This document shows positions 2,717 to 61,690 of a stretch of DNA of 64,000 nt, one piece after another. Origin of the DNA: Candidatus Aenigmatarchaeota archaeon (lineage in GTDB: Archaea > Aenigmatarchaeota > Aenigmatarchaeia > QMZP01); NCBI GenBank assembly GCA_016198585.1, contig JACQII010000016.1, positions 88,932-152,931 of the forward strand, in the 5' to 3' direction. The position numbers and the translations under genes were made by a program. The notes under the pieces are model-generated. The model did no database searches, was not told the origin of the DNA, and saw only the letters and a list, made by a program, of their open reading frames with translations. The first letter of the stretch is position 1. Each line of letters begins with the position of its first letter.

Positions 2717-3462
2717 AACACGGGAAGACCGTCCTCCTGGGGCCAGGACTCGCCCTCTTGGCATGGTATCTTATCGCCGAACTGCGCCTCGTCGACGCGT
2801 TCTTCCTCCCGGGTCCGATAGCGACCATCAGCGAGCTGCTCGAACTGGCCGTTGGAGGCGGCATCATCACTGATGCGCTCCTCACCCTTGAGCGGGTCTT
2901 CCTCGCGTTCGTCATCGCTGTCCTGGTCGGCATACCGGTCGGGCTGTTCCTCGGCACTTCGCGACGGGTGTATGAAAGCCTCGAGATGGTCATCGACTTC
3001 TTCAGGTCGATCCCGGCGACGGCGATCTTCCCCCTGTTTGTGGTGGTATTTGGGATTGAGGACAGCTCGAAGATCGCGGTCGCTTCGTTCGCCTCGGCGC
3101 TCATCATTCTCTTCCATACCGCCCACGGCGTCATGCACGCGAAGAAGTCGAGGACTTTGGCAGCCCGGCTCATGGGCGCTACGAAGCTCCAGGTATTCCG
3201 GTTCGTCTCCTTCTGGGAATGTTTGCCTCAGATCTTCGTCGGCCTCCGGACGGCGGTGAGCCTCTCCCTGGTCATTGTCGTTGTGACGGAGATGTTCATC
3301 GGCACCTATGCCGGCCTCGGACGCCGCCTCATCGATTTCCAGTACGTGTACAACATCGAGGGCATGTACGCGATCATCCTGCTGACGGGGATCATCGGCT
3401 ACCTGATCAACGCGGTCTTCATCCTCCTCGAGCGACGGGTCGTCCACTGGTCAGGGAAATAA
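2713..3462 (+). CDS. ABC transporter permease (binding-protein-dependent inner-membrane component)
   Basis: Multiple hydrophobic TM segments occur downstream of the ATPase and are translationally coupled to it. This is the typical TauC/SsuC-like organisation. Confidence 0.8.
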   Translation: MKHGKTVLLGPGLALLAWYLIAELRLVDAFFLPGPIATISELLELAVGGGIITDALLTLERVFLAFVIAVLVGIPVGLFLGTSRRVYESLEMVIDFFRSIPATAIFPLFVVVFGIEDSSKIAVASFASALIILFHTAHGVMHAKKSRTLAARLMGATKLQVFRFVSFWECLPQIFVGLRTAVSLSLVIVVVTEMFIGTYAGLGRRLIDFQYVYNIEGMYAIILLTGIIGYLINAVFILLERRVVHWSGK

Positions 3463-3560
3463 TATCTGATGGCAGGTGCCAGCCCCTTCACAGTCAACCG
3501 ACCCACGAGGCCGGGGCGGTCCTGACGCTGGAATTTAAGTTCTGACGGGAAAGATCTTCC

Positions 3561-4019
3561 ATGAAGGTCGCGCCGCTCTCGAAGCGACAGGAACCAGGGC
3601 TGAACCGCCTGCTGCGCGAGTACTGGGAGACCCGCGGGATGCGCTACTCTGCAGCCTACACCCGTCGCTACCTGCGGGAAGGCCATCGCATCGAGATCCT
3701 CGGCGACCGGTTCTTCGTCGCCGTTGACGGCCAGGAGGTCATCGGCTGCGCATCCGTGGTCTTCCAGGAACCTGAAGTGGCTGAGCTGCGCGACCTCTTC
3801 GTCCGGCCGGCCTGGAGGAACCGGGGAGTCGCGAACCAGCTGCTGCTGGCCAGCGTCGCCGCGTGCCGAACGCGGAAGGTTAGAAAAGTCTTCGCGCTCG
3901 TGTTTCCCGAGGTCGCGGACCTCTACCGCGCGCACGGATTCAGGGAAGAGGGGAGACTCAGGAGCCACTTCGCGCGCGGCGAGGACCTGCTCATCGTGGC
4001 GCGGTTCCTGCGGACGTAG
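3561..4019 (+). CDS. GNAT-family N-acetyltransferase
   Basis: 152 aa with the acetyl-CoA binding motif LFVRPAWRNRGVANQLL. A TATA-like 'GGAATTTAAG' lies about 25 nt upstream. Confidence 0.6.
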   Translation: MKVAPLSKRQEPGLNRLLREYWETRGMRYSAAYTRRYLREGHRIEILGDRFFVAVDGQEVIGCASVVFQEPEVAELRDLFVRPAWRNRGVANQLLLASVAACRTRKVRKVFALVFPEVADLYRAHGFREEGRLRSHFARGEDLLIVARFLRT

Positions 4020-4068
4020 CTGGACTGCAGCTTTTTATGTTTGCGCGCCCAATACAGAGTGGGTTTCG

Positions 4069-4416
4069 TTGGAACCCATCGAACGGCGCTACCGAACAGG
4101 CGACACGGTTTCTCTGCACTATGTGCATGATGTCGGTTTCCCGGCTGAGCCGCAGGCGTTCGAGCTGGTGGACATCCACGACGGTTACGTCACCGCCCAG
4201 GTGGCCGGCTGCCGGCCAACCTTCTACCCCCTCAGCGCATTCGCCGAGCTGCTGCGCACCGATGGCCACCAGCTCGTGGTCCGGGAGGACGCAGCTTTCC
4301 ACCGGTTCCTGCGGGTGCGGGGAGCCTATGCGACCGCCCAGGAGATCGCCCGGCGCTACCACGCCGCCGTGCTTGAGGCCGTCGAGGGCCTGCAGCAGCG
4401 CGAACAGCGCCGATGA
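4069..4416 (+). CDS. Hypothetical small protein. The start is uncertain: TTG at 4069 or GTG near 4123.
   Basis: The protein-like frame is ...EWVSLEPIERRYRTGDTVSLHYVHDVGFPAEPQAFELVDIHDGYVTAQVAGC...EAVEGLQQREQRR. A TATA-like 'GCTTTTTATGTT' lies at 4030-4041. The overlapping 4037 ATG frame is S/R/P-rich junk. Confidence 0.3.
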   Translation: MEPIERRYRTGDTVSLHYVHDVGFPAEPQAFELVDIHDGYVTAQVAGCRPTFYPLSAFAELLRTDGHQLVVREDAAFHRFLRVRGAYATAQEIARRYHAAVLEAVEGLQQREQRR

Positions 4417-5662: not shown

Positions 5663-6403
5663 ATGGCGCTGGCGATCCTGCGGAAGATCGGGCTGTCGGA
5701 AGGCGAGGCGACCGTCTACACCGCCCTCCTCGAGGCAGGCCGCTCGCCGCTGAGCAGGATCCACGAGAGGACCGGCATCGAGCGGCGCAACATCTACGAC
5801 ATCCTGAACAAGTTGATCGAGCGCGGACTCGTCACGTACGTGACCGAGAACCGGCGGCGCTTCTTCCAAGCCGGTCACCCGAGCACGCTGGTCGGCTACC
5901 TCGATGCGAAAGGGGACGAGCTGGAGCGGACCAAGCGCGCTGTGCAGAAGGAGCTTCCCAGCCTGGTGGGGACGTTCCTCGCGAAACGGCCAGCCGTCTC
6001 GGCAGAAATCTTCCGCGGCCACGACGGGATGAAGGCGGCCTGGGAAGACATCCTCCGCGAGAAGGAAATCCGGTTCATTGGGTCGGGCCGGTACGTACCG
6101 AAGACCCTCCCGCGCTTCTTCCGCAGCTGGAACGCGCGCCGGATCGCGCGGCGCATGAAGCTCTTCAACCTGGTCCGGGCCGAGCTCCGGAAGGAGATCA
6201 GGAAGCCTTACCCGCTCGAGTACATCCGCTACCTGCCACCCGAATTCAGCGGCAACCCTGCCGTCGTCGCTATCTACGGCAACAAGACCACCCTGCTGCT
6301 CCTCGGGACTGAGTTCTTCGCCTTCGTGATCGAGAGCAAGGAGCTCGCCGACAACTATCGGGATTACTTTCGCTTTTTATGGTCAAATGTCGCAAAAAGG
6401 TAG
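5663..6403 (+). CDS. TrmB-family transcriptional regulator
   Basis: MALAILRKIGLSEGEATVYTALLEAGRSPLSRIHERTGIERRNIYDILNKLIERGLVTY is an N-terminal wHTH plus C-terminal sensor domain. It is a paralog of the regulators at 1..862 and 24676. Confidence 0.75.
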   Translation: MALAILRKIGLSEGEATVYTALLEAGRSPLSRIHERTGIERRNIYDILNKLIERGLVTYVTENRRRFFQAGHPSTLVGYLDAKGDELERTKRAVQKELPSLVGTFLAKRPAVSAEIFRGHDGMKAAWEDILREKEIRFIGSGRYVPKTLPRFFRSWNARRIARRMKLFNLVRAELRKEIRKPYPLEYIRYLPPEFSGNPAVVAIYGNKTTLLLLGTEFFAFVIESKELADNYRDYFRFLWSNVAKR

Positions 6404-6415
6404 CAGGAGCCTGAG

Positions 6416-8137
6416 GTGAGAGACATGAAGATGCGTTCCCCGATCCTGGTCGCGCTCGGCCACGTCGACCATGGGAAGACCACGCTGCTGGACAAGATTA
6501 GGGGAAGCGACGTCGCCCGGACTGAACCCGGCCTCATCACCCAATACATCTCCGCCAGCTACATCCCCACCAACACGATCCGCCAGCGATGCGGGCCGCT
6601 GCTCGACCGGTTGGGCATCACCCTCAACATCCCGGGCATCCTCTGGATGGACTCCCCAGGACACGAGGCGTTCACGACCCTCCGCAAGCGAGGCGGCGCG
6701 ATCGCCGACTTCGCCGTCCTGGTGGTCGACCTGATGGAGGGATTCCAGCCCCAGACCCGGGAGAGCGTGAACTTCCTCCGCCAGTTCAAGACCCCCTTCT
6801 GCGTCGCACTCACCAAGATCGACCGCCTGGTGGGCTGGGTGCCCCGGCCGGGGGAGCCGTTCGTGGCCTCGTTCGAGGACCAGTCCTCCCGGACAAAGGA
6901 GGCGTTCGATGACAAGTTCTACCGGATCATCGGCGAGCTCGGGAGGGAAGGGTTCTCTGCCGAGCGGTTCGACCGGGTGGAGGACTTCACCAAGCAGATC
7001 GCCATTGTCCCGCTCTCCGGCACGACCGGCGAAGGCGTCCCTGATCTGCTCGTCATCATCGCTGGCATCGCCCAGCGGTTCCTCAAGGGCAGCCTCGAAG
7101 TCCAGCCGGGGAAGGGCAAGGGCACGGTCCTGGAGGTGAAAGAGGTCGTCGGCCTGGGCTCGACCATCGACGCGATCATCTACGACGGCTCCGTGCGCAG
7201 GGGAGACTTCCTGGTGGTCGGCGGCAACGACCTGGTCCGCTCGCGCGTCAAGGCGCTGCTCGTGCCGGCTCCGCTGAAGGAGCTGCGCATGGAGAAAGGC
7301 TTCCAGCCAGCAGATGAAATCGCGGCCGCAGCCGGCGTCAGGATCGCTGGCCCGGGCCTGGAATTCGTGCTCGCGGGCTCGCCCTTCCGCGTCGTCAAGT
7401 CCGAGAAGGAGGTCACGGCCGCCGAGGATGAAGTCAGGGAAGAGGTCGAGGAGGTCGAATTCGCCTCTGCCCAGGACGGCGCCATCCTCCGGGCCGACAC
7501 CCTCGGGAGCCTCGAAGCCCTGATCAAGACCCTGCAGCCGGTCGTCCCGATCCGGAAGGCCGGGGTCGGGACCGTGACCCGGGCCGACGTACTCGAGGCC
7601 AAGACCCTGGGCCGCCCGATCTTCGCCTTCGGGACCAAGCGGCTCCCGGACATCGAGAAGTTCGCCAAGGACAACCAGGTCGCCCTGTTCGCCTCGGACA
7701 TCATCTACGCCATGGTCGAGGACTACCAGACCTGGGAGCTCGGCGCGAAAGAGCGCTCGCTGCAGCACATCCTGGATTCGGTCCCCCGGCCAGGCCAGGT
7801 GGCGGTCCTCAGGGGCTTCCTCTTCCGGCAGAAGGACCCTGCAGTGTTCGGGGTCGAGGTCGTGAAAGGCACGATCAGGCCTGGCGTCGTCCTGGTGAAC
7901 AAGGGGAAGAAGATCGGCGAGGTCAAGGAGATCCAGGACCAGGGAGAGTCCCGTCCAGAGGCCGTCAAGGGCCAACGCATCGCGATTTCCATGCCCGACG
8001 TGGTCTTCGGCAAGCAGGTCAACGAAGGCAACGTCCTCGAAGTCTTCCTTTCGGAGGCGACGCGCGAGGCCCTGGAGAAGGCCCGCAGCAAGCTGCGGCT
8101 GGACGAGCGCGAGCTGCTCGATGCGGCGGGATTTTAA
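6416..8137 (+). CDS. infB: Translation initiation factor aIF5B (IF2/eIF5B homolog)
   Basis: The GTPase G1 motif VALGHVDHGKTTLLDKIRG is present, with beta-barrel domains over about 570 aa. The start may be an ATG a few codons downstream. Confidence 0.85.
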   Translation: MRDMKMRSPILVALGHVDHGKTTLLDKIRGSDVARTEPGLITQYISASYIPTNTIRQRCGPLLDRLGITLNIPGILWMDSPGHEAFTTLRKRGGAIADFAVLVVDLMEGFQPQTRESVNFLRQFKTPFCVALTKIDRLVGWVPRPGEPFVASFEDQSSRTKEAFDDKFYRIIGELGREGFSAERFDRVEDFTKQIAIVPLSGTTGEGVPDLLVIIAGIAQRFLKGSLEVQPGKGKGTVLEVKEVVGLGSTIDAIIYDGSVRRGDFLVVGGNDLVRSRVKALLVPAPLKELRMEKGFQPADEIAAAAGVRIAGPGLEFVLAGSPFRVVKSEKEVTAAEDEVREEVEEVEFASAQDGAILRADTLGSLEALIKTLQPVVPIRKAGVGTVTRADVLEAKTLGRPIFAFGTKRLPDIEKFAKDNQVALFASDIIYAMVEDYQTWELGAKERSLQHILDSVPRPGQVAVLRGFLFRQKDPAVFGVEVVKGTIRPGVVLVNKGKKIGEVKEIQDQGESRPEAVKGQRIAISMPDVVFGKQVNEGNVLEVFLSEATREALEKARSKLRLDERELLDAAGF

Positions 8138-8159
8138 AGTGGCCGGCCCTAAAGATCTC

Positions 8160-8507
8160 ATGGGCATCCACTTCTACCAACGGACCGATCGCCACCGCGA
8201 CCAGCTCACGGGCCGCGAGCGCGAGGTCCAGCACGCAGTAGAGCGGGCCGCAGCCGGGATCGCGAAGCCGGTCGTGCGCGTCCACGCCAGCCACGTCCAC
8301 GTCTTCGCCTCGGTCCCGGAAGCGCGGGAACGGTTCTTCGCCAACCGCGTGCGGGCTGCACTGGCCGGCCTCCCTGATGTCCGGTGGGACGCCCACCACT
8401 ACCTCTTCCCGGTCGCCTCCCTGCGGCCGCGCGACCTGGACCGCCTGCTCGAGGGGATGCACCAGAACCGGTATGCGGACGCTTCTGGACTGCGGAGACG
8501 GCCATGA
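8160..8507 (+). CDS. Hypothetical protein (His-rich, 115 aa)
   Basis: A TATA-like 'GATTTTAAAGTGG' at 8130-8142 spans the infB stop codon. ATG 8160 lies about 20 nt downstream, so the transcript is leaderless. The stop overlaps the PAP2 start (ATGA at 8504). No family is recognised. Confidence 0.4.
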   Translation: MGIHFYQRTDRHRDQLTGREREVQHAVERAAAGIAKPVVRVHASHVHVFASVPEARERFFANRVRAALAGLPDVRWDAHHYLFPVASLRPRDLDRLLEGMHQNRYADASGLRRRP

Positions 8508-25398: not shown

Positions 25399-25435
25399 CG
25401 GAACCCCTTTTAAAGCTCCGATTCAATCCCACATC

Positions 25436-25909
25436 ATGCTCACCTACGATGTGCTGCGGTCCTTCCTGGACCAGGAGAAGGCCGCGACCGGGCTGGTGCG
25501 GCTGCCGGACGATTTCTTCGACCAGGTTGCCGCATACTTCCGCGGCAAGGCCGACCTCCAGCGGGATGCAGACGCAGCAAAGCGGCTGCTGCTGGACCTG
25601 CTCGAGGTCCGCGAGCGCAAGCTGCTGACGGCGGCCGTGTTCGCCGTCCGCTCAGGAGTGGAGCCGGACGTGCTCCCCGAGGAGAAGGCCTTCCTCTCCG
25701 CGCTCCGCGAAGCTGTCCAGACCTTCGGCGACAAGAAGAAGTTCCTCCTCGCCGGCGGCCAGGTGGAGGTCCTCCAACCGGTTCCCGCCTTCCTGGGGAC
25801 GGACCTGAAGACGTACGGCCCGCTCGAGCCCGGCCAAGTCGTCGCGCTCCCGCCCCAGGTCGCGAGCCTGCTCGTGGAGAAGGGCGCAGCGAAGCCGGCC
25901 GGCGCGTAA
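25436..25909 (+). CDS. GINS complex subunit (Gins51/Gins15-like)
   Basis: A helical A-domain (LPDDFFDQVAAYF...LLLDLLEVRERKLLTAA) is followed by a beta B-domain (VEVLQPVPAFLGTDLKTYGPLEPGQVVALPPQVASLLVEKGAA). A TATA-like 'CCCCTTTTAAAGC' lies about 20 nt upstream. Confidence 0.55.
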   Translation: MLTYDVLRSFLDQEKAATGLVRLPDDFFDQVAAYFRGKADLQRDADAAKRLLLDLLEVRERKLLTAAVFAVRSGVEPDVLPEEKAFLSALREAVQTFGDKKKFLLAGGQVEVLQPVPAFLGTDLKTYGPLEPGQVVALPPQVASLLVEKGAAKPAGA

Positions 25910-25913
25910 CCCG

Positions 25914-26315
25914 CTACGTGATCTCGTCGAGCGCGCGGTTCACGAGAGCATCAGCCCGTCGGATCATCGGATGCGTGCGCACCACGTGCCGGTAGGCGAT
26001 CGACCCGAACGACCGCTCCCGTTCCTTCAGCTCGGCATGCAGCTTCTTCAGGCCCGGGTCGCGGATCCGGTACGCTCCGGTCACCTGGCGCACGACCAGC
26101 TCGCTGTCCATGGTGCAGACGACTGAACTCCCATAGCGCCGCGCGAGCTCGAGGGCCTTCAGCAGGGCCCGGTACTCGGCCTGGTTGTTCGTCGCGCGGC
26201 CGATGCGCTCCTTGTGCTCGAGGATGATGCGGTCGCCGTCGGCGATGACGACGCCGATCGCCGCTGGGCCGGGATTGCCCCGCGATCCGCCGTCCGAGTA
26301 GGAAAAGAGGGTCAC
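25914..26315 (-). CDS. rnhA: Ribonuclease HI (type 1 RNase H)
   Basis: The motifs YSDGGSRGNPGPAAIGVV, TNNQAEYRALLKALELA and DSELVVRQ are present in a 133-aa protein. Confidence 0.85.
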   Translation of the reverse strand: MTLFSYSDGGSRGNPGPAAIGVVIADGDRIILEHKERIGRATNNQAEYRALLKALELARRYGSSVVCTMDSELVVRQVTGAYRIRDPGLKKLHAELKERERSFGSIAYRHVVRTHPMIRRADALVNRALDEIT

Positions 26316-26368
26316 AGTCTTCTGTTAGTTCCGGCGGCTTTTAAGCGTCATTTTTTTCTCTGTTCTCG

Positions 26369-26833
26369 TTAGAGGTCATGAGCAATGAGGGTGTAGACGA
26401 GTATACTCTCCGCGATCGGAGGTGCCTCGCACAGGAAGCCGACATAGGGTAGGCCGCCTTCCCCGTAGATGACGCTCCGCATCGGACACTGCATTCTCTT
26501 TTCAAGGCCTTCTTCCGAGAAGGGGGTCGCCGCTTCGCCGATCACGGTTGCGGTGGTGACATAGAACGGCTCCAAGACGCGGAAGCTCGTGTTTTGCCCG
26601 TCCGGGCACCAGCCGACGTTCCCCACTCCCTCCACGAACGTGCACTCCTCTGCCGCGATGACGACGTGCAGGACCTCGGGCTGGCTATCCAGCAGCAGCT
26701 GCAGGCTCCCGATCGCGTCCCAGAGGGAGGCAAGCTGCATCCGCACCCAGCTGTCAGGGGCGGCCTGGGCCACCGAGAGCAGGCCCGCGAAGACTATGAC
26801 CACGGCGCCAAGGACGACGAAGGTCTTGTGCAT
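26369..26833 (-). CDS. Secreted hypothetical protein (signal peptide, Cys-containing)
   Basis: MHKTFVVLGAVVIVFAGLLSVAQAAP is a signal peptide. No known motifs are present. Confidence 0.4.
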   Translation of the reverse strand: MHKTFVVLGAVVIVFAGLLSVAQAAPDSWVRMQLASLWDAIGSLQLLLDSQPEVLHVVIAAEECTFVEGVGNVGWCPDGQNTSFRVLEPFYVTTATVIGEAATPFSEEGLEKRMQCPMRSVIYGEGGLPYVGFLCEAPPIAESILVYTLIAHDL

Positions 26834-26916
26834 ACTCCTCCTGGGAAACTGGATTTAAAAGCCTGGATGTCAGAGGGGAGGGGCAATGGTTTTAATTCTT
26901 TAAGCCAATTGTTGGC

Positions 26917-28179
26917 ATGGTCGTAAGTAGTAATAAGCACCTCTGGACTTTACCTATCTTGTTCTTCTTTCTAGTAATACCAACCGCACAAGGAAGTTGG
27001 GTTGGTGTTCATCCTTCTGGGAATTTTAGTGTCGATTTTCCGTTCTGGGAAGCGGTCAGAATAGTACAGTGGAAGGATGAAAGCACTCTAGACAGGACCA
27101 ATTATCAAGATTTGTTGGTTGCTGCAGAATTCGAACTACAAATTAATAGGAACTTATCAGGAGGGAAGGTAAACATAACATATTACACGTTGGAGGCTTC
27201 AAGGAATAATGACGCTACTAATTTTATATCCAAGGTCTGCAGCGACAGATATTGCAATCATACCATTTTTTCTGGGAGTTCAGTATCGATAGGCAGCAAT
27301 ATCTTTACATTTACTCTGCCTATACCTGAGCTGGAATCAGACACCGTTTTTAATGTTTTCATTGAGTACAGAATTCCTAATTTTATCGAGAAGAAAGGAA
27401 TATACTATGTAGCAAAGTTTAACGCCGTGTGCCAGACTATCGATTTCTGCCCACCTGAGCATACGATGATGCGAACATTCATAATACCATACGAAGATAC
27501 AATCATAGAGAAATTGATACCCGAGAGTATCGAGTCGGCTACCTTTCATGAGAAAGATGAGCAGTACCTGACATTTTCAGAAAGTTATAAAGAGATATGG
27601 TTTTCAAGAATCTCAGAAACCAATTTTTGGTTGCCTTTCCTTTGGCAGTTCTTGGGGGCAGTATTGGGCGCCTTTCTAGCTATTTTGGCAGCCGAAAGTT
27701 GGAAATTCGTTAGAAGAAGAGGATCAAAGATACCGCAGGAGAAAGTCGCAAGAAAGAGTACAGATATGAGAAATCCGAGGGTTAGTAGAAACGACGATAA
27801 ACGTTTTTTGATAAAAGTATATCAGAATAATAGAGATTATCACGCAACGATGGCAACTCAAGGTCTTACAATACTACTTACACTTGCAACATTAATTGTT
27901 GCCATTCTTACTCTCATCAATGTTGCTTATTCATCTGTCGTTAGCCCATGGCTAAGCACATGGTTCCCTATCATGAATCTTGTCATCGTTGCTGCCATTA
28001 TAATAACTTGGATATATGTCTACAAGGTCAGAATTTCGCCTGATAAACGGAGTGCATCGAACTTTCATCTACAGTATAAAATATTTTTATCAGAACTCTA
28101 CCCTCGTCTTTTTCAGCTGTCAGAGAATGACAACAAAAGGATATATGACAGGGAGTTGCGAAAAAAACCAAACTTCTAA
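26917..28179 (+). CDS. Low-GC (~38-40% GC) membrane/secreted hypothetical protein (420 aa)
   Basis: A signal peptide TLPILFFFLVIPTAQG is present with internal TM helices and many N-x-S/T sequons. The composition contrasts strongly with the ~63% GC background. The gene ends 62 nt from the tRNA-Gly 3' end. Confidence 0.5.
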   Translation: MVVSSNKHLWTLPILFFFLVIPTAQGSWVGVHPSGNFSVDFPFWEAVRIVQWKDESTLDRTNYQDLLVAAEFELQINRNLSGGKVNITYYTLEASRNNDATNFISKVCSDRYCNHTIFSGSSVSIGSNIFTFTLPIPELESDTVFNVFIEYRIPNFIEKKGIYYVAKFNAVCQTIDFCPPEHTMMRTFIIPYEDTIIEKLIPESIESATFHEKDEQYLTFSESYKEIWFSRISETNFWLPFLWQFLGAVLGAFLAILAAESWKFVRRRGSKIPQEKVARKSTDMRNPRVSRNDDKRFLIKVYQNNRDYHATMATQGLTILLTLATLIVAILTLINVAYSSVVSPWLSTWFPIMNLVIVAAIIITWIYVYKVRISPDKRSASNFHLQYKIFLSELYPRLFQLSENDNKRIYDRELRKKPNF

Positions 28180-28240
28180 TCCGATCATTCAAGCCGAGGA
28201 TCAATTGTTGAACTTGTCTTGATGTGGTGGTTCGAATGGA

Positions 28241-28354
28241 TGCGTCGGGCGAGAGTCGAACTCGCGTTACAGCCTATTTGCCCGGCGTTTCTGGGTGCAG
28301 CCTCTTTTGAAGAGGTGCTGGCAAGGCCGCGTACTACCACTATACTACCGACGC
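28241..28354 (-). tRNA. tRNA-Gly(GCC) with a 43-nt intron after position 37
   Basis: The acceptor stem is GCGTCGG/CCGACGC. The D-arm is GTAT-AGTGGTA-GTAC. The anticodon stem CGGCC/GGCTG has the loop TTGCCA with anticodon GCC. The T-arm is GCGAG-TTCGACT-CTCGC. The discriminator is A, and CCA is not encoded. The 43-nt insertion 3' of the anticodon matches the canonical archaeal intron position. Confidence 0.7.
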
Positions 28355-29847: not shown

Positions 29848-29941
29848 ACCTACACTTTCCCTCCCCTCTTAAGAAGGCTTCCGGGCCCCCTAGAGGCCGA
29901 TCACCGCCTTGGCGATCCTTATTAAAGCTTCCTCCTCATCA

Positions 29942-30937
29942 ATGAATGAAACAATGGCAAACACCGCACTCATCATCGGCATTGTTGTGGTCATGGTGAT
30001 CGTCGCAGCGGTCGCCATGTACACCGGCATCCTCTCCCCGGCGGGAGAATCCTACGCAGCGGCAATCAAGAAGAACACGACCCACCTCGAGTGCGTGAGC
30101 AACACGTGCACGAAAGTCAGCGGCGCGGGGACGAACAAGTGCTCGCCCCTCGGCTCGGCGTGCGGCAATCAGACACACCTGGAGTGCATCAGCAACACGT
30201 GCACCGCTGTCAGCGGCCCGGGAACCAACCAGTGCTCGCCTGCTGGAGCGGCATGCGGCAAACCCGATCTTACCATTCCCGACGTTATCTATTTCGTGAA
30301 GGACTTCGATGGAAAGAATGCTACCATCCTATTATCTGCAACCGTCAAAAACATCGGTGACGCACAGACGGGAACGCCATGGACCATCGCCACGTTTGCT
30401 CTGTCGGCTGGAGGGTCAACGAAATTGTACAACGGAACGGCCTTTGGCAGCCTTCTTCCTGGCATGAATACCAGCGCGTCGGTGATCGCTACGATTGCTG
30501 CCAGCACGACATATATTGTGATTGTTACGGCGGATAGCGCCAATGCCATCGCAGAGTCCAACGAGTCAAACAATCAGAAATCGATCATGTTTATCATAAA
30601 TAATTCCACGCTCCCCGACTTGACCGTTACGAACCTTATCTACAATGCGACTCCGTCGAATTCGACATCAAACGCAGCGCTTTCAGCGACAGTCAAGAAC
30701 ATCGGGCAAGCAGGAGCGTGGTCGTCAGGTTATGAAAACATGAAATTCCTTGTATCTCCAAACAATCTCTACTTCACCTCTACCCCTATCATTCCTGCGG
30801 GAGGGGAATTCACAATCAATGCGTACTATAATCTCACTCCAGGAGTGTACAACGCCACCGCTACTGTCGACTACCAGAAAAAGGTGAATGAAACAAACGA
30901 CGCTAACAACGAGCTTACGGTTACTTTCGTCGTCTAG
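29942..30937 (+). CDS. Membrane-anchored surface protein with duplicated Cys motifs and two CARDB-like domains
   Basis: An N-terminal TM MANTALIIGIVVVMVIVAAVAMY is present. Repeats HLECVSNTCTKVSGAGTNKCSPLGSACG and HLECISNTCTAVSGPGTNQCSPAGAACG occur. 'TVKNIG' is present twice, ending in SNESNN/TNDANNEL. There are many N-x-S/T sequons. TATA 'CCTTATTAAAGC' lies about 20 nt upstream of ATG 29942. Confidence 0.55.
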   Translation: MNETMANTALIIGIVVVMVIVAAVAMYTGILSPAGESYAAAIKKNTTHLECVSNTCTKVSGAGTNKCSPLGSACGNQTHLECISNTCTAVSGPGTNQCSPAGAACGKPDLTIPDVIYFVKDFDGKNATILLSATVKNIGDAQTGTPWTIATFALSAGGSTKLYNGTAFGSLLPGMNTSASVIATIAASTTYIVIVTADSANAIAESNESNNQKSIMFIINNSTLPDLTVTNLIYNATPSNSTSNAALSATVKNIGQAGAWSSGYENMKFLVSPNNLYFTSTPIIPAGGEFTINAYYNLTPGVYNATATVDYQKKVNETNDANNELTVTFVV

Positions 30938-46172: not shown

Positions 46173-46203
46173 AGTTAACTTATTACACCTTTTGTATATG
46201 AGG

Positions 46204-46237
46204 TCGCACACCCCCTTGCGCTGAGAGGGGGCCTCTG
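46204..46237. repeat. Hairpin-containing repeat copy 2 (CGCACACCCCCTTGCGCTGAGAGGGGGCCTCTG)
   Basis: See copy 1. It lies upstream of the YdeI-gene promoter and downstream of the convergent small membrane-protein gene. Confidence 0.5.
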
Positions 46238-57913: not shown

Positions 57914-58849
57914 TCAGAGGGGCATGAGGTCGATCGAGACGTCCTCGAAGATGGGGATGATCTCGTAGTTGTCTATGAGGTCGAACTTGTCCCGCAGGTC
58001 GATGATGAGCTGCTGCAGACTCTCATTGTCCTCTATCCGCACGTGCACCAGGAGGTTCCATACGCCGAACATCCTGACTGCCTGCGTGACCGATTCAGTC
58101 CTTTCGAGGTAGTGGATCAGCTTGTTCTCTCTTTCCTTCGCATAGTCCTTGAAGGAGAAGAGAACGAGGAAGGGCTTCCTATCTTCCGTTCTCATGAACA
58201 TCCGATAGCCGAGGATGACATTCGCCCTTTCCATCGCCTTGACCCTATTTATGATCGTCTTGTAGGATACCTGTTTTTCGCGGGAGATCTCCAAGGACGA
58301 TAATCTGCAATTCTCCTTCAGCTTGCTGAGGATGAAATGGTCGAGGCCATCGATATCTGTATGCTTATCCTGGTATCCGTAGGTCATGGTGTGGTAGTCT
58401 TTGCTGAGAAATTTGTGCCGGTAGACGTAATGATTCAAACCATAGCAACTGGTATAGTTCTTGACCAGCCCGGGAAATCGTGCATTGAACTTTTCCATGA
58501 AGTTGTCGAATGCCGCAAAGTCGAAGACGAATAGCACGACGTGCAGATCGTATGCGCCACCAGTCCGCGCGGACCAGTAGACCCCTTTCTGGCCGCCCAG
58601 GTAGTCAAAGACCTCCTTGCTGGAGTAGGTGCTCGAATTGAACGTGAAAAACACCCTGTAGTGTTCCTGCTTCAGGGCCTTGAGGTTGATGATGGCTCCT
58701 ATTTTCGTGATGCGTTTCTCGACGATCATCCTCCTTATCCGGTAGTCTGCAACCTGCTGGGAAATGCGTAACTTTCTCGCGAGCTTTGCGACCGGCGTTC
58801 GCGGATGGGAGTCCAGTTCAGCCAGAATCTTCGTATCAATTCTGTCCAT
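57914..58849 (-). CDS. Tandem-duplicated Lrp/AsnC-family transcriptional regulator (two HTH_AsnC + RAM-like modules), low-GC
   Basis: HTH 1 is MDRIDTKILAELDSHPRTPVAKLARKLRISQQVADYRIRRM. HTH 2 is LDHFILSKLKENCRLSSLEISREKQVSYKTIINRVKAMERANVILGY. There is a RAM-like C-terminus. GC is about 45%. Confidence 0.6.
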   Translation of the reverse strand: MDRIDTKILAELDSHPRTPVAKLARKLRISQQVADYRIRRMIVEKRITKIGAIINLKALKQEHYRVFFTFNSSTYSSKEVFDYLGGQKGVYWSARTGGAYDLHVVLFVFDFAAFDNFMEKFNARFPGLVKNYTSCYGLNHYVYRHKFLSKDYHTMTYGYQDKHTDIDGLDHFILSKLKENCRLSSLEISREKQVSYKTIINRVKAMERANVILGYRMFMRTEDRKPFLVLFSFKDYAKERENKLIHYLERTESVTQAVRMFGVWNLLVHVRIEDNESLQQLIIDLRDKFDLIDNYEIIPIFEDVSIDLMPL

Positions 58850-58940
58850 GCATGAGTTGGAATATTTTTCTTTAAAAAGGTTCTTATATACAAAAATAGA
58901 GACCCTACATTCCTATAAAATAGGAACGCCTATTCTGGAC

Positions 58941-59597
58941 ATGAGAATCAGGGTTCAAAACGTGGAATATGAATTGGGCGGCGGGGATGTACGATCGGGT
59001 GGGGTTGTACGACCGTTTAGGGTGAGTTTTGACACAGGAGACCGATATTTCCGTCTGAAATTATCTGCCACAGGCTCTCTCTACGTCAATAATGAAGGCC
59101 GGTTCTCAGATAAAAGAAAGGGCAAAATGCGGTACAGCGATGATCCAGGATTGAACGATGGTAGTCTCCTCTCAAACCCTTATTTGGAACTAAAGCTCTC
59201 TGATTTCTCCCCACACGAAGAGATGACCGCACACTGGAAGAGTGTTCGTTCACACTTTGTGGAAGATAAGGACTCCTCAGAACCGATACGTGGAAAGTCT
59301 CTTGACAGAAGATTCCCCTCTGAAGGATGTCTCTATGTCGATGGGCATCCATGGGAACAGCACTACAAGCATGGCAGGCATCATTATTATCTAAGAAAGG
59401 ACGGGCTACTGATCGAGGATACAAAGACGATACAGCTTCTGGAAAGAGAGCAGCCTGAGACTGTTCTGGAACTGATGAAATTCATAGCGGCGGCGAGACC
59501 TCCGCGGGAGGCTCTGGAGTCCATTCGTATGAGGAGATGGAAGATGTCGAGCGCTGAGACTTTGAGTCTAGGAGTGGGGAGCAGGCTGGTGTCGTGA
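58941..59597 (+). CDS. Hypothetical protein, paralog A of a tandem pair (218 aa)
   Basis: MRIRVQNVEYELGGGDVR...NPYLELKLSDFSPHEEMTAHW...RFPSEGCLYVDGHPWEQHYKHGRHHYYL...QPETVLELMKFIAAARPPREALES. No family is recognised. AT-rich TATA-like boxes lie upstream ('TTCTTATATACA' and 'CCTATAAAATAGG'). Confidence 0.5.
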   Translation: MRIRVQNVEYELGGGDVRSGGVVRPFRVSFDTGDRYFRLKLSATGSLYVNNEGRFSDKRKGKMRYSDDPGLNDGSLLSNPYLELKLSDFSPHEEMTAHWKSVRSHFVEDKDSSEPIRGKSLDRRFPSEGCLYVDGHPWEQHYKHGRHHYYLRKDGLLIEDTKTIQLLEREQPETVLELMKFIAAARPPREALESIRMRRWKMSSAETLSLGVGSRLVS

Positions 59598-59603
59598 TAT
59601 CCT

Positions 59604-60272
59604 ATGCAAATCAGAGTTCAGAATGTCGATTATGAATTGAGCGGCGGGATCGTAAGGCCGTCGAGGGTCCACCTTCATGTCGGTGGATTGTATCAATTCA
59701 GCATGAGTCTGACCGGAGACGGTTCACTACATGTAAACAATGGACACCTCATCCCAAAGAAGAGGAAGGGCGAGATACAGTTTGACGACCAGGACTGGAA
59801 TGACGGCAGAGGCTTCATGTGCAACCCGTACCTTGAGCTGCAGCTGTCTGACCTGCCTCCGTTTGAAGAGGTGATTGAACATTGGAGAACCGTTCGCCCA
59901 CACTTCCTAGAGCGGAGACCCTACGGCGTTCCTATGGGTGGCCATATCTCAACAACGTACACCTATCCGGACGGGAGGAGTGTCAGGCGCGACGCAAAAG
60001 GGGACCCGACGAAGCTGATCAGAGGGAGGCCATTTGACACGAGATTCCCCTCCGACGGATGCACGTACATAGAAGGCCATCCGTTTGAACAGCACTACCG
60101 GCACGGCAGGCACGATTACTATCTGGAAAAGGGATCGGTGATGGTCGAGGACGAGAGAACGATCCAAGATCTGGAAGGGGAGCAGCCGGAGGCTGTCCTG
60201 GAGCTGTTGAAGTTCATCTCGTCGGCAAAGACTCCCCGCGAGGCCCTCGAATCGTTCGTTGTTCCGCGCTAG
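59604..60272 (+). CDS. Hypothetical protein, paralog B of the tandem pair (222 aa)
   Basis: MQIRVQNVDYELSGGIVR...NPYLELQLSDLPPFEEVIEHW...RFPSDGCTYIEGHPFEQHYRHGRHDYYL...QPEAVLELLKFISSAKTPREALES. It is about 50% identical to paralog A and starts 7 nt after it. Confidence 0.5.
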   Translation: MQIRVQNVDYELSGGIVRPSRVHLHVGGLYQFSMSLTGDGSLHVNNGHLIPKKRKGEIQFDDQDWNDGRGFMCNPYLELQLSDLPPFEEVIEHWRTVRPHFLERRPYGVPMGGHISTTYTYPDGRSVRRDAKGDPTKLIRGRPFDTRFPSDGCTYIEGHPFEQHYRHGRHDYYLEKGSVMVEDERTIQDLEGEQPEAVLELLKFISSAKTPREALESFVVPR

Positions 60273-61690
60273 TACGCCTTCGCGAAGTAGACCTGGATCC
60301 CGGGCTTGCCGCAGATCACGCAGTCCTGGGAGATCGGTTCGAACGGAACCACCCGGATGTCGGCCCCGGTCTTGTCCTTGACATGGTCTTCGCATGTCCT
60401 GGACTGGCACCATCCAGCAACGAGGAAGCCCCGCTTCTCCTCGAGCGTCTTCTCGAGGTCTTTGAACGACTGGACATGGTGGGTCTGGTCGGCGAGCAGC
60501 TTCTTCGCGCGCTTCAGGAGGGCGTGCTGGATGTCCTCGAGGATTTCGGCCACCGCTGCATGGAGCGTGGCGAGCGGGACCGCGGATTTGGCGCCGGTGT
60601 CACGCCGGACCAGGACCGCTTGTCGCTTCTCCAGATCCTTGGGCCCGACCTCGATCCGCAGGGGGACGCCCTTCATTTCCCACTCGTTGAACTTCCAGCC
60701 CGGACTGTACCCGTCGCGGTCGTCGACGTGGACACGAACTGCCAGGGTCTCTGCCAGTCGCCGCGCCTCCTTGAGGACCACCGCTTTCGTGTCATCTTTG
60801 AAGATCGGCACGATGACGGCCTGGTACGGTGCCACCGCAGGCGGGAGGATGAGACCCCGGTCGTCGCCGTGCGTCATGACGACCGCGCCGATGAGCCGGG
60901 TGGAGACTCCCCATGAGGCCTGCCACGCGAACTGCCGCTGCTGGTTCTGGTCCAGGAACGCGATATCGAAGGCCTTGGAGAAGTTCTGGCCCAGGTGGTG
61001 GGAGGTCCCCATCTGCAGCGCCCGGCCGTCGGGCATCATGGCCTCGATGCACGTCGAGGTGGCCGCGCCCGCGAACTTTTCCCGCTCGGTCTTCCTTCCG
61101 AGGACGACGGGCACGGCCAGGACCTCCTCCGCGAGCTGCCGGTAGAGCTCAAGGACGGCCAGGACTTCGCGCATCGCCTCGTCCTCGGTCGCGTGGACGG
61201 TGTGGCCCTCCTGCCAGAGGAACTCGCAGGTCCGCAGGAAGAGCTTCGTACTCTTGATCTCCGCGCGGAAGACCGAGTTCCAGTAGTTGTAGAGAATGGG
61301 CAGGTCTCTCCAGGAGCGGACCCACTTTGCGTACGCGTCGTAGATCACCGTCTCGCTCGTCGGCCGGAGGACCAGCCGCTCGTCGAGCTTCCCGCTGCCC
61401 GATTCGGTCACCAGGAACATCTCCGGTGCGAAGCCCTCGACATGCTCTTTCTCCTTGCGGAGGAACCGCTCAGGAATCAGCGCAGGGGCGTAAGCGTTGA
61501 CGTGGCCGGTCCTGAAGAGCATCGCGTTGAACACGGCCTGGATCTGCTCCCAGATCCCGTAGCCGTACGGCCGGATGAACATGAACCCTTTGACCGCGGA
61601 GAAGTCAGCGAGACCGGCCTTGAGCACGGCTTCGTTGTACCACTCGGAGAGGTCGGCCTTCTTGCAGGTGATGCCCTCTTGTTCAGCCAT
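60269..61690 (-). CDS. proS: Prolyl-tRNA synthetase (archaeal/eukaryotic type)
   Basis: Class II motifs are present with a C-terminal zinc-binding domain ending ...VICGKPGIQVYFAKAY, in a 473-aa protein. Confidence 0.9.
   Translation of the reverse strand: MAEQEGITCKKADLSEWYNEAVLKAGLADFSAVKGFMFIRPYGYGIWEQIQAVFNAMLFRTGHVNAYAPALIPERFLRKEKEHVEGFAPEMFLVTESGSGKLDERLVLRPTSETVIYDAYAKWVRSWRDLPILYNYWNSVFRAEIKSTKLFLRTCEFLWQEGHTVHATEDEAMREVLAVLELYRQLAEEVLAVPVVLGRKTEREKFAGAATSTCIEAMMPDGRALQMGTSHHLGQNFSKAFDIAFLDQNQQRQFAWQASWGVSTRLIGAVVMTHGDDRGLILPPAVAPYQAVIVPIFKDDTKAVVLKEARRLAETLAVRVHVDDRDGYSPGWKFNEWEMKGVPLRIEVGPKDLEKRQAVLVRRDTGAKSAVPLATLHAAVAEILEDIQHALLKRAKKLLADQTHHVQSFKDLEKTLEEKRGFLVAGWCQSRTCEDHVKDKTGADIRVVPFEPISQDCVICGKPGIQVYFAKAY

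Follow-up and report, generated by a model that had tools for sequence, protein, structure and literature searches.

Gene content and layout of the locus

The segment at positions 57914-60272 of the window (the whole 64-kb stretch of DNA that was analysed) is bounded by a VOC (glyoxalase-family) gene and the gene of prolyl-tRNA synthetase (ProRS). It carries a fused double Lrp/AsnC regulator gene, divergent from two tandem paralogs, par1 and par2, and the regulator and par1 are separated by a short AT-rich control region (Table 1). The preliminary description of this DNA had reported the same gene content, that is, a double-length regulator divergent from paralogs of 218 and 222 aa, and its coordinates proved exact in an ORF check.

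The start of par1 at 58941 fits the family alignment, in which the homologs begin M-x-I/Y-x-V/I at this point; the public record for the gene gives 249 aa from 58848 (P0067), versus 218 aa here. For par2, the public record holds only 189 aa (P0001), and the start at 59604 is backed by the family alignment.

Table 1. Features of the regulator-paralog locus (positions are those of the window)
Feature	Position	Strand	Remarks
Fused double Lrp/AsnC regulator gene ('Lrp2x')	57914-58849	-	311 aa
Regulator module 2	57917-58378	-	aa 158-311; HTH + RAM-like domain
Regulator module 1	58379-58849	-	aa 1-157; HTH + RAM-like domain
Divergent control region between regulator and par1	58850-58940		91 bp, 32% GC
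11-mer GGAATATTTTT	58859-58869	+	unique in the window
Inverted pair, first arm TATTTTTCTTT	58863-58873	+	pair overlapped by GGAATATTTTT
Inverted pair, second arm TATTTTTGTAT	58888-58898	-	
Conserved promoter box of the regulator family, TTTTTGTATATAAGAACCTTTTTAAAGA	58869-58896	-	28 bp; PWM
Segment TTTTTGTATATAAGAA within the regulator box	58881-58896		
Putative par1 promoter, palindromic TATA element CCTATAAAATAGG	58910-58931	+	read from the sequence
Paralog 1 (par1)	58941-59597	+	218 aa; within longer ORF 58764-59597
Paralog 2 (par2)	59604-60272	+	222 aa; begins 6 nt past the par1 stop
Beta-rich insertion of par2 between the two beta4-alpha repeats, 'GGHISTTYTYPDGRSV...'	59910-60026	+	aa 103-141; TCP10/YD-like hairpin
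Most conserved family block, 'G..FD.RFPSDGC.YI.GHP.EQHY.HGR.DYYL'	60024-60128	+	par2 aa 141-175; first strands of repeat II
CTAG, stop-stop overlap of par2 with the convergent ProRS gene	60269-60272		4 bp; right edge of the low-GC segment
ProRS gene, convergent with par2	60269-61690	-	

A fused double Lrp/AsnC regulator

In the Lrp/AsnC regulators E. coli AsnC (2CG4) and Lrp (2GQQ), Pyrococcus PH0140 and the 150-aa Sulfolobus tokodaii protein (2EFO), an HTH_AsnC domain is followed by a RAM (AsnC_trans_reg) domain, as is also found here. However, the present protein holds two complete modules in one 311-aa chain, whereas the solved relatives are all single-module proteins of ~150-180 aa. Pfam detected the HTH_AsnC-type domain (PF13404, 4.4e-17) and the AsnC_trans_reg (RAM) domain (PF01037, 8.1e-11) in two stretches each, with the best stretches at residues 1-41 and 242-294, respectively, in agreement with the two HTH+RAM modules noted earlier. 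The HTH of the second module lies around residues 166-212. In addition, the NCBIfam AsnC/Lrp models match residues 160-294 (AsnC, 1e-16 on 162-294), and AsnC 2cg4 matches residues 166-302 among the PDB sequences. Between the two modules the identity is only 21%. Sixty-three full-length homologs with 49-65% identity are present in DPANN MAGs, and the mean column identity of the regulator alignment (A3) is 69%. Two diverged Lrp/AsnC modules are fused in this one chain of 311 aa, and the family of the protein is conserved across DPANN archaea. We found no description of a double Lrp/AsnC architecture in DPANN in the literature. In PADLOC, the regulator had only weak HTH-level matches. The genomic neighbours of the homologs vary from genome to genome. 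The ORFans adjoining the regulator homologs were considered as distant relatives of the paralogs and rejected, since BLAST among them gave self-matches only and a search with the family HMM placed no member in the vicinity of those regulators.

It is extremely improbable that the double protein is an AhbA/AhbB (NirDL-type) sirohaem decarboxylase-like enzyme and not a regulator. Fused forms of sirohaem decarboxylase exist. The subunits of this enzyme are structural homologs of Lrp/AsnC proteins, and AhbA and AhbB resemble the present protein in having paired Lrp/AsnC-like modules that act together; they make up an enzyme, however, rather than a DNA-binding regulator (PMC4145669). The NCBIfam AhbA model does match the protein, but very weakly (E 0.045), against 1e-12 to 1e-16 for the AsnC, Lrp and LysM models. 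Haem-pathway genes are absent from all the regulator-homolog neighbourhoods examined, and the conserved promoter box of the regulator family suggests autoregulation.

Divergent control region

The box was defined by a PWM that represents the sequences upstream of 19 regulator genes. It combines an operator-like element on its upstream side with BRE/TATA and ends 19 nt before the regulator ATG; the predicted regulator mRNA is leaderless. Eighteen of the 19 genes score 19-33 bits, with 21.1 bits in this window and a shuffle maximum of 10.1, and the box is the sole PWM match above 8 bits in the 64 kb. A weak match to the core of the box at 46189-46204 lies inside a coding region and was dismissed. 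As with other Lrp/AsnC regulators, the gene is divergent from its putative target gene and has an AT-rich, pseudo-palindromic candidate operator.

The 11-mer GGAATATTTTT also opens the conserved promoter element of the family genes in two other contexts (L001 and L112). The family genes of L001, L029 and L112 share a promoter element beginning (G)GAATATTTT[TG][GA]TCA, which is similar to the 5' half of the box of the regulator. Its 12-nt core occurs 14 times in 1.95 Mb, and three of the occurrences are at family promoters.

TATA-like boxes are present on both strands of the intergenic region, as had been described. On the par1 side, a second palindrome, ATAGGAACGCCTAT, overlaps the TATA element; the centre of this element is ~26 nt from the ATG, a spacing that would make the par1 mRNA leaderless. 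The regulator box is not present in the par1 TATA region itself. A scan for sigma-70 promoters and intrinsic terminators gave nothing above shuffles; these models are not applicable to archaea.

A very rare paralog family

The two paralogs are 48% identical (E 7e-71), close to the ~50% first estimated, and they were sisters in all of the 200 NJ bootstraps. They represent a lineage-specific tandem duplication within a very rare DPANN family of roughly 25 members (clusters). The preliminary description could place them in no known family, and the searches lead to the same result: Pfam gave no match to par1 or par2 at E<=1 and no PC4, PurA, Whirly or DUF2128 family in four other members, NCBIfam and PADLOC had no match for either paralog, PHROGs gave nothing significant (one match at E 0.28), and a search of PDB sequences with the family profile gave none at E<=10. 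No relatives were found by a pattern-based search of GTDB genomes, IMG/VR and JGI metagenomes, or by tblastn of the family against 50,697 phage and 72,556 plasmid records, and no description of the family was found in the literature.

Both paralogs are soluble proteins, and neither has a TM helix or a signal peptide, with a maximum 19-aa Kyte-Doolittle hydropathy of 0.43 in par1 and 0.47 in par2. A signal peptide was detected in only one of the ~25 family members: in the homolog P0003, RRDFLK together with a hydrophobic region makes up a convincing twin-arginine signal (Pfam TAT_signal, E 0.002), and a TATA box lying 27 nt ahead of the ATG backs this start. The signal implies export in that organism.

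The sequence blocks previously called strictly conserved are so between par1 and par2, but not across 23 homologs (alignment A2), in which D145 and P160 alone are invariant, and conservation is 90% or higher at G124, G141, C153, Y155, Q163, Y165 and L174. The conserved Cys/His residues had been suggested as a possible metal or catalytic site; both Cys and His are replaced in the divergent members P0084, P0085, P0087 and P0089, and this lack of invariance across the family argues against an obligatory site of either kind. The pI of most family members is in the acidic to neutral range of 4.8-6.9, and the conserved repeat-II strands of par2 are aromatic- and His-rich with a net charge of -6; this pI range and charge are atypical for nucleic-acid binders.

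Predicted structure of the paralogs

The AlphaFold model of par2 reached a pLDDT of 89.9 with 23 homologs and only 38 with four sequences. DSSP assigns to repeat I of the model the strands 3-13, 16-26, 32-37 and 42-46 followed by the helix 81-100, and to repeat II the strands 153-156, 159-167, 170-174, 178-182 and 187-191 followed by the helix 194-207. The modelled protein has the secondary structure by which the PC4-like/Whirly/Pur-alpha fold is defined (PMC7549692), and it superposes significantly on members of this fold. The predicted paralog fold resembles the Pur-alpha/Whirly (PC4-like) nucleic-acid-binding fold. The closest fold relatives are the PUR repeats I-II of Pur-alpha (PDB 3K44) and the type-I PC4-like fold, and the other closest systems are Whirly (p24/PBF-2, StWhy2) and the trypanosome MRP1/MRP2. 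The cyanobacterial structural-genomics proteins 2IT9 and 2NVN differ from the paralogs in having ~120 residues and no insertion, and share no sequence similarity with them. Foldseek against PDB and BFVD returned nothing at E<=0.001, with a teneurin YD shell, a polo-box and OspA at the top (TM 0.15-0.2). At the sequence level, no link of the paralogs to PurA, Whirly, PC4 or DUF2128 appeared in Pfam or PDB sequences, and an hhalign comparison of the N-terminal with the C-terminal repeat for internal duplication gave no signal (probability 2%).

The insertion between the repeats of par2 comprises the model strands 103-109, 113-120, 126-130 and 138-141. A beta-hairpin segment of ~28 aa is present in par2 and most homologs and missing from par1, which has lost the beta-hairpin insertion of the repeat linker. 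Positions 102-146 of the family profile match 18 repeats, corresponding to Pfam Tcp10_C, in the long repeat proteins P0081 and P0083. A common function with these giant proteins was considered and rejected, as the matches are motif-level and to Tcp10_C-type repeats only.

Genomic contexts of the family

In a second genome (L018), the regulator is likewise divergent from a family gene. Among the ten other family contexts, the regulator is not adjacent in nine and the family gene is always single-copy; two copies in one place occur in this window only. The idea of a regulator-controlled two-gene module is supported by the shared divergent promoter region and by the pairing in L018. In most contexts the neighbours are housekeeping genes (ProRS, Cdc6, L31e, RPA and riboflavin kinase). 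In L030, the family gene (6001-6732) is convergent with a ProRS gene (6729-8198) in the same overlap geometry as par2 and ProRS, and in L031 the same stop overlap joins a family gene with Cdc6. The homolog P0077 immediately precedes an RPA-like OB-fold gene that is read in the same direction, and RadA is found ~5 kb away; the distant homolog P0089 (L010) lies among ORFans. The locus had been put forward as a candidate for an undescribed system; it is better read as a small regulator-plus-target unit and is not a new multi-component system, with a transcription factor beside the duplicate of a gene that is single-copy elsewhere.

Base composition and origin

The segment is a low-GC patch within the high-GC genome of a DPANN archaeon; its GC content is 50.7%, versus 63.8% in the flanks. 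The discontinuity and the flank value reported earlier (~45% against ~63%) are borne out, but ~45% does not apply to the whole segment: 45-47% is reached only by 300-bp windows between 58150 and 59350. Among 2.4-kb windows (mean GC 0.627, sd 0.04) only the segment and one other region fall below 0.56, and in tetranucleotide distance the segment exceeds the mean by 3.9 sd. The GC3 is 0.74 in the regulator, 0.66 in par2 and lowest in par1 (0.51), and the native/flank range is 0.76-0.94. The regulator is near the native genes PNPOx (0.757) and Bud32 (0.771), and its low GC lies mostly in codon positions 1 and 2. All relatives of the regulator and of the paralog family are on contigs of 27-55% GC labelled Nanoarchaeota, Woesearchaeota or archaeon. 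The likeliest source of the low GC is an origin in DPANN relatives of lower GC, foreign or unequilibrated, and this is clearest for par1.

It is possible, though doubtful, that the whole 2.4-kb segment, with the regulator and both paralogs, arrived by a recent horizontal transfer as a self-contained module under the control of its regulator. This reading agrees with the deviating composition, the low-GC contigs of the relatives, the regulator-family pair in L018, the very patchy distribution of the paralog family, and the fact that none of the 80 nearest ProRS loci (the best ProRS relatives being <=59% identical) carries the regulator or a family gene. However, the GC3 values of the three genes are strongly unequal, with the regulator close to native values, and par1 and par2 differ in GC3 even though their duplication is old (63% nucleotide identity, 41% at third positions). 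In addition, no integrase-like ORF lies between the flanking VOC and ProRS genes, no tRNA lies within 29 kb of the segment, and the att-like flanking direct repeats amount to short, chance-level matches only. The par2/ProRS stop overlap, meanwhile, is repeated in L030, where the ProRS is only 37% identical. The horizontal acquisition first proposed is thus upheld in its compositional part but not as a one-step event, and a single recent transfer of the whole segment is only partly supported. A source in a metagenome-assembled genome and the sharp contrast with the flanks might also be taken to indicate a chimeric join, through assembly or binning, in the MAG contig. We regard such an artefact as exceedingly unlikely, because the right junction falls inside the overlapping stops of par2 and a ProRS gene of native composition, the GC climbs gradually through par2 (0.52 to 0.58), nothing unusual marks the left junction, a 103-bp intergenic spacer of 57% GC, and the independent contig L030 has the same family-ProRS join.

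Possible function of the locus

We tentatively read the locus as a transcription factor with its target, in which the Lrp-type regulator co-controls the duplicated PC4-like pair, an account that we consider plausible but a little short of probable. The regulator would bind the 28-bp box as well as the inverted TATTTTT[C/G]T pair close by, and this binding would autoregulate its gene; since the two promoters stand back-to-back within 91 bp, the regulator would also co-regulate the par1-par2 operon. This control would probably respond to a small-molecule ligand sensed by the RAM domains, by analogy with other Lrp/AsnC proteins. The par1 and par2 proteins might act as oligomers, conceivably as a heteromer like MRP1/MRP2, and the conserved sheet of repeat II, rich in His, Tyr and Arg, might be their ligand-binding surface; judging from the fold and the one RPA-adjacent homolog, the candidate ligand would most likely be single-stranded nucleic acid. 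The points against this regulator-target model are the lack of a sequence-level link to the PC4, PUR or Whirly families, the low pI of most family members and the negative net charge of the repeat-II strands of par2, the twin-arginine signal of P0003, and the absence both of the regulator box from the par1 TATA region and of an adjacent regulator from nine of the ten other contexts. A wider version, in which the fused regulator and its box form a DPANN-wide regulon that includes the paralog family even where unlinked, and the family is an unrecognised archaeal PC4/Pur-alpha-like branch of single-stranded nucleic-acid-binding proteins with par1/par2 as a heteromer, appears unlikely; the suggestion that unlinked family genes belong to the regulon comes from the resemblance of the L001, L029 and L112 promoter elements to the 5' half of the box.

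The paralogs may alternatively be modules that bind a ligand, a metal or a protein through the conserved Cys/His/Tyr/Arg sheet and are able to work extracellularly, for example in DPANN-host interaction. This seems rather unlikely to us, because a signal peptide is so rare in the family and absent from par1 and par2, the Cys/His residues are replaced in four members, and the fold matched none of the known families that bind metals or ligands. That the pair is mobile-element cargo, an anti-virus defence or a toxin-antitoxin module is very improbable. Low GC, small tandem genes without annotated function beside a regulator, and the position of P0089 among ORFans would fit such a role, but PADLOC has no match for the paralogs and PHROGs none better than E 0.28, the family is absent from the phage and plasmid records and from IMG/VR, its neighbours are mostly housekeeping genes, and a toxin-antitoxin module would not consist of two paralogs from the same family.

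The genomes of DPANN archaea are very small and rich in unannotated genes, and to our knowledge almost none of their transcription factors have been characterised. The present locus overturns no current view. It provides two testable handles: a 'pseudo-dimeric' Lrp/AsnC regulator that is one single chain, is conserved across Nanoarchaeota- and Woesearchaeota-like lineages and has a candidate operator of sharp conservation, and an orphan family of roughly 25 clusters that is now confidently modelled and, by its predicted structure, placed with the PC4/Whirly/Pur-alpha fold. If both the regulatory link and the nucleic-acid binding are true, a regulator with its target and a further, new family of PC4-like proteins would be added to what is known of archaea.

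Gene content and composition of the segment

The three ORFs placed at 57914-60272 by the preliminary description were confirmed by an ORF check, and the feature is genuine rather than artefactual. Archaeal housekeeping genes flank the segment, among them those for an archaeal-type prolyl-tRNA synthetase (ProRS), a class I aminoacyl-tRNA synthetase, a Bud32/RIO-like kinase, a cytidine/dCMP-type deaminase, and the ribosomal proteins S5 and L30. The drop in GC is genuine (50.7% in the segment vs 63.8% in the flanks), but it had been overstated, as 45-47% is found only in the centre; the 91-bp intergenic region between the regulator gene and paralog 1 has 32% GC. The tetranucleotide distance of the segment is 3.9 sd above the mean. 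There is only one other low-GC patch in the window, which has 62.8% GC overall. Aenigmarchaeota MAGs are reported to have 25-48% GC (PMC8407114), far below this value; either the DPANN lineage is an unusual one with high GC, or its taxonomic label is coarse.

The second patch (25400-28200, ~49% GC, tetranucleotide distance +4.4 sd) ends beside a tRNA gene, and so may be what is left of an integrated element. The tRNA, which presumably contains an intron, was detected by Rfam, unlike by ARAGORN, which reported no tRNA over the whole window. A CARDB-domain protein encoded at 29909-30937 is likely a surface protein.

Features of the segment, its control region and other parts of the window
Feature	Position	Strand	Remarks
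RNase H/RVT_3-like gene	25914-26315	-	in patch 25400-28200
154-aa protein, signal-like N-terminus	26369-26833	-	in patch 25400-28200
420-aa membrane protein	26917-28179	+	in patch 25400-28200; no Pfam match
tRNA, 114 nt	28241-28354	-	Rfam, 53 bits
342-aa protein	29909-30937	+	N-terminal membrane anchor; two CARDB domains (1.6e-22); Asn/Thr-rich
Double Lrp/AsnC regulator	57914-58849	-
GGAATATTTTT	58859-58869		91-bp intergenic region; single occurrence in window
Regulator box	58869-58896	-	sole match within the 64-kb window
Inverted pair TATTTTT[C/G]T			91-bp intergenic region; copies 25 bp apart
Palindromic TATA element CCTATAAAATAGG			91-bp intergenic region; centre ~26 nt upstream of paralog 1 ATG
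Paralog 1	58941-59597	+	218 aa
Paralog 2	59604-60272	+	222 aa
ProRS	60269-61690	-	convergent with paralog 2

The double Lrp/AsnC regulator and its promoter

As previously claimed, the regulator is a fused double protein, with two AsnC-type HTH and two RAM domains in 311 aa. The solved Lrp/AsnC relatives are all single-module, in contrast to the two modules in one chain found here. The double architecture is present in every one of 63 full-length homologs (49-65% identity, all ~310 aa), which are labelled Nanoarchaeota, Woesearchaeota or plain "archaeon", and species-representative genomes contain 17 further regulator loci. The alignment is strongly conserved (mean column identity 69%), and the regulator is no peculiarity of the window's genome. 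Its two modules share only 21% identity, which makes the fusion an old one with two non-equivalent HTH domains.

The neighbours of the regulator vary among genomes, and the divergent one is mostly an unrelated ORFan; the pattern is a constant regulator with a changing divergent neighbour. In three homolog loci (L003 3971-4881, L006 3842-4903 and L008 4410-4907), the divergent genes are three different small ORFans with no Pfam match and no mutual similarity. In a Nanoarchaeota MAG (L017), a second, divergent double-length Lrp-like gene (3141-4115, minus strand; 2.7e-38 and two domain hits with the regulator HMM) lies directly downstream of the conserved regulator.

When the upstream regions (160 bp) of 19 regulator genes were aligned, a ~28-bp element emerged, the regulator box (consensus TTTTTGTAAATTAGAAATATTTATAAAC). 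It occurs in 18 of the 19 regions at 19-33 bits (maximum in shuffled controls, 10.1 bits), in most cases with its end 19-31 nt ahead of the start codon. This spacing is consistent with a BRE/TATA element and leaderless mRNA, plus an operator-like half upstream. The regulator may bind the box, GGAATATTTTT, the inverted pair and the TATA palindrome of the intergenic region. The promoters of three genes of the paralog family (L001, L029 and L112) share the element (G)GAATATTTT[TG][GA]TCA[CG][GA]AGC[TG]TAT, whose 5' half resembles that of the regulator box; in the 1.95 Mb of sequence retrieved, its 12-nt core is present 14 times, three of them exactly at family promoters. The resemblance is a hint, though no proof, of a regulatory connection even between unlinked regulator and family genes.

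The paralog family

The two paralogs share 48% identity (E 7e-71), close to the ~50% first estimated; neither has a hydrophobic segment, in line with the reported lack of signal peptides and TM helices, and their placement outside known families holds, nothing significant being found in Pfam, NCBIfam, PADLOC or PHROGs. The family profile matched no PDB sequence at E<=10. Among 5.8 billion proteins, a word-indexed search gave three matches; a profile search, run exhaustively over 1.84 billion cluster representatives, gave 28, two being the window's own paralogs as publicly annotated. No relatives were found by pattern search of GTDB representatives, IMG/VR and JGI metagenomes, or in phage and plasmid collections. 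Two of the 28 matches were rejected as giant repeat proteins matching the hairpin segment only: P0081 (1211 aa) and P0083 (1683 aa) consist of a ~60-aa unit (GGDGSSTWTYADGTKVDRNAAGD...SFDRF) repeated ~18 times, which Pfam assigns to Tcp10_C and which resembles the archaeal family's hairpin insertion, and one ends in a WXG100-like domain.

The publicly annotated gene starts are probably wrong: the model of paralog 1 (249 aa, 58848-59597) starts too early, inside the 32%-GC promoter region, and that of paralog 2 (189 aa, 59703-60272) starts too late and lacks 33 N-terminal residues. Starts at 58941 and 59604 are preferred because the homologs begin at corresponding positions of the family alignment. 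Conservation is concentrated in blocks (HW..I...F; G.x.ST.Y.FPDG; G.S.D..F.S.GC.YI...P..QHY.HGRFD.YL; QPE..LELL.FI), but only D145 and P160 are invariant family-wide, and the Cys/His residues singled out earlier are replaced in divergent members.

AlphaFold failed with 4 sequences (pLDDT 38), whereas 23 sequences gave pLDDT 89.9 and pTM 0.86. The model comprises four strands and a long helix (1-100), a four-strand insertion (103-141), and five strands with two helices (153-219); Foldseek returned no significant match. By the definition of Janowski and Niessing (PMC7549692), the predicted structure is a type-I PC4-like fold with an insertion in the linker. Paralog 1 has lost ~28 residues of this insertion. 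No internal sequence repeat is detectable, as is usual for the PC4-like fold.

Genomic contexts and origin of the segment

Ten family contexts were found outside the window. The family gene is divergent from the same double regulator in L018, and from an HTH-CBS regulator in L112, where an RPA-like OB-fold gene follows it immediately and RadA is ~5 kb off. It is convergent with ProRS in L030 (the ProRS proteins of L030 and the window are only 37% identical) and with Cdc6/Orc1 in L031, lies between riboflavin kinase and L31e genes in L001, adjoins an SDR gene in L011, is surrounded by ORFans in L010, and is on short contigs in L002, L029 and L114. A 4-bp stop-stop overlap with the convergent housekeeping gene recurs in the window (60269-60272), L030 (6729-6732) and L031 (6645-6648). 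In the L001 member, P0003, the N-terminus is extended in frame by 35 residues (5668-5772) that contain a textbook twin-arginine signal, DRRDFLKLAGIAAGAAGA; the ancestral start has become a TTG (Leu) codon at 5773, and use of the new ATG is supported by a TATA box 27 nt upstream.

The family gene is single-copy in all these contexts, and every one of 200 bootstraps groups paralogs 1 and 2 as sisters; therefore, the tandem pair is a lineage-specific duplication. With 63% nucleotide identity between the copies, and 41% at third positions, the duplication is old.

The horizontal acquisition proposed earlier is partly supported. The deviating composition, the occurrence of all relatives on contigs of 27-55% GC, the patchy distribution, and the absence of both genes from 80 of the 80 nearest ProRS loci argue for transfer. 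However, a single recent event bringing in all three genes is at odds with their unequal GC3 (0.74 in the regulator, 0.51 in paralog 1, and 0.66 in paralog 2, reaching 0.71 in its 3' half), with the low GC of the regulator lying mostly at codon positions 1 and 2, with the lack of the mobility signatures looked for at the segment, and with the family-ProRS adjacency seen again in L030. Paralog 1 is likely of foreign or unequilibrated origin, and such an origin, though an older one, is probable for the regulator and paralog 2.

Proposed function

The regulator would bind the shared control region and thereby control its own gene and the paralog operon, while the paralogs may assemble into oligomers whose conserved repeat-II sheet binds a ligand. 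The leading candidate for this ligand is single-stranded nucleic acid, because of the predicted fold and the RPA, Cdc6 and RadA neighbourhoods. However, the mostly acidic pI of the family and the Tat-exported homolog weaken this explanation, and we therefore rate it as a whole at slightly less than an even chance; that the paralogs bind a non-nucleic-acid ligand or a metal seems rather unlikely. The segment, named at first as the window's best candidate for an undescribed system, is not a categorically new one; it holds a conserved fused Lrp regulator and, beside it, a protein family that is uncharacterised but can be placed by structure.
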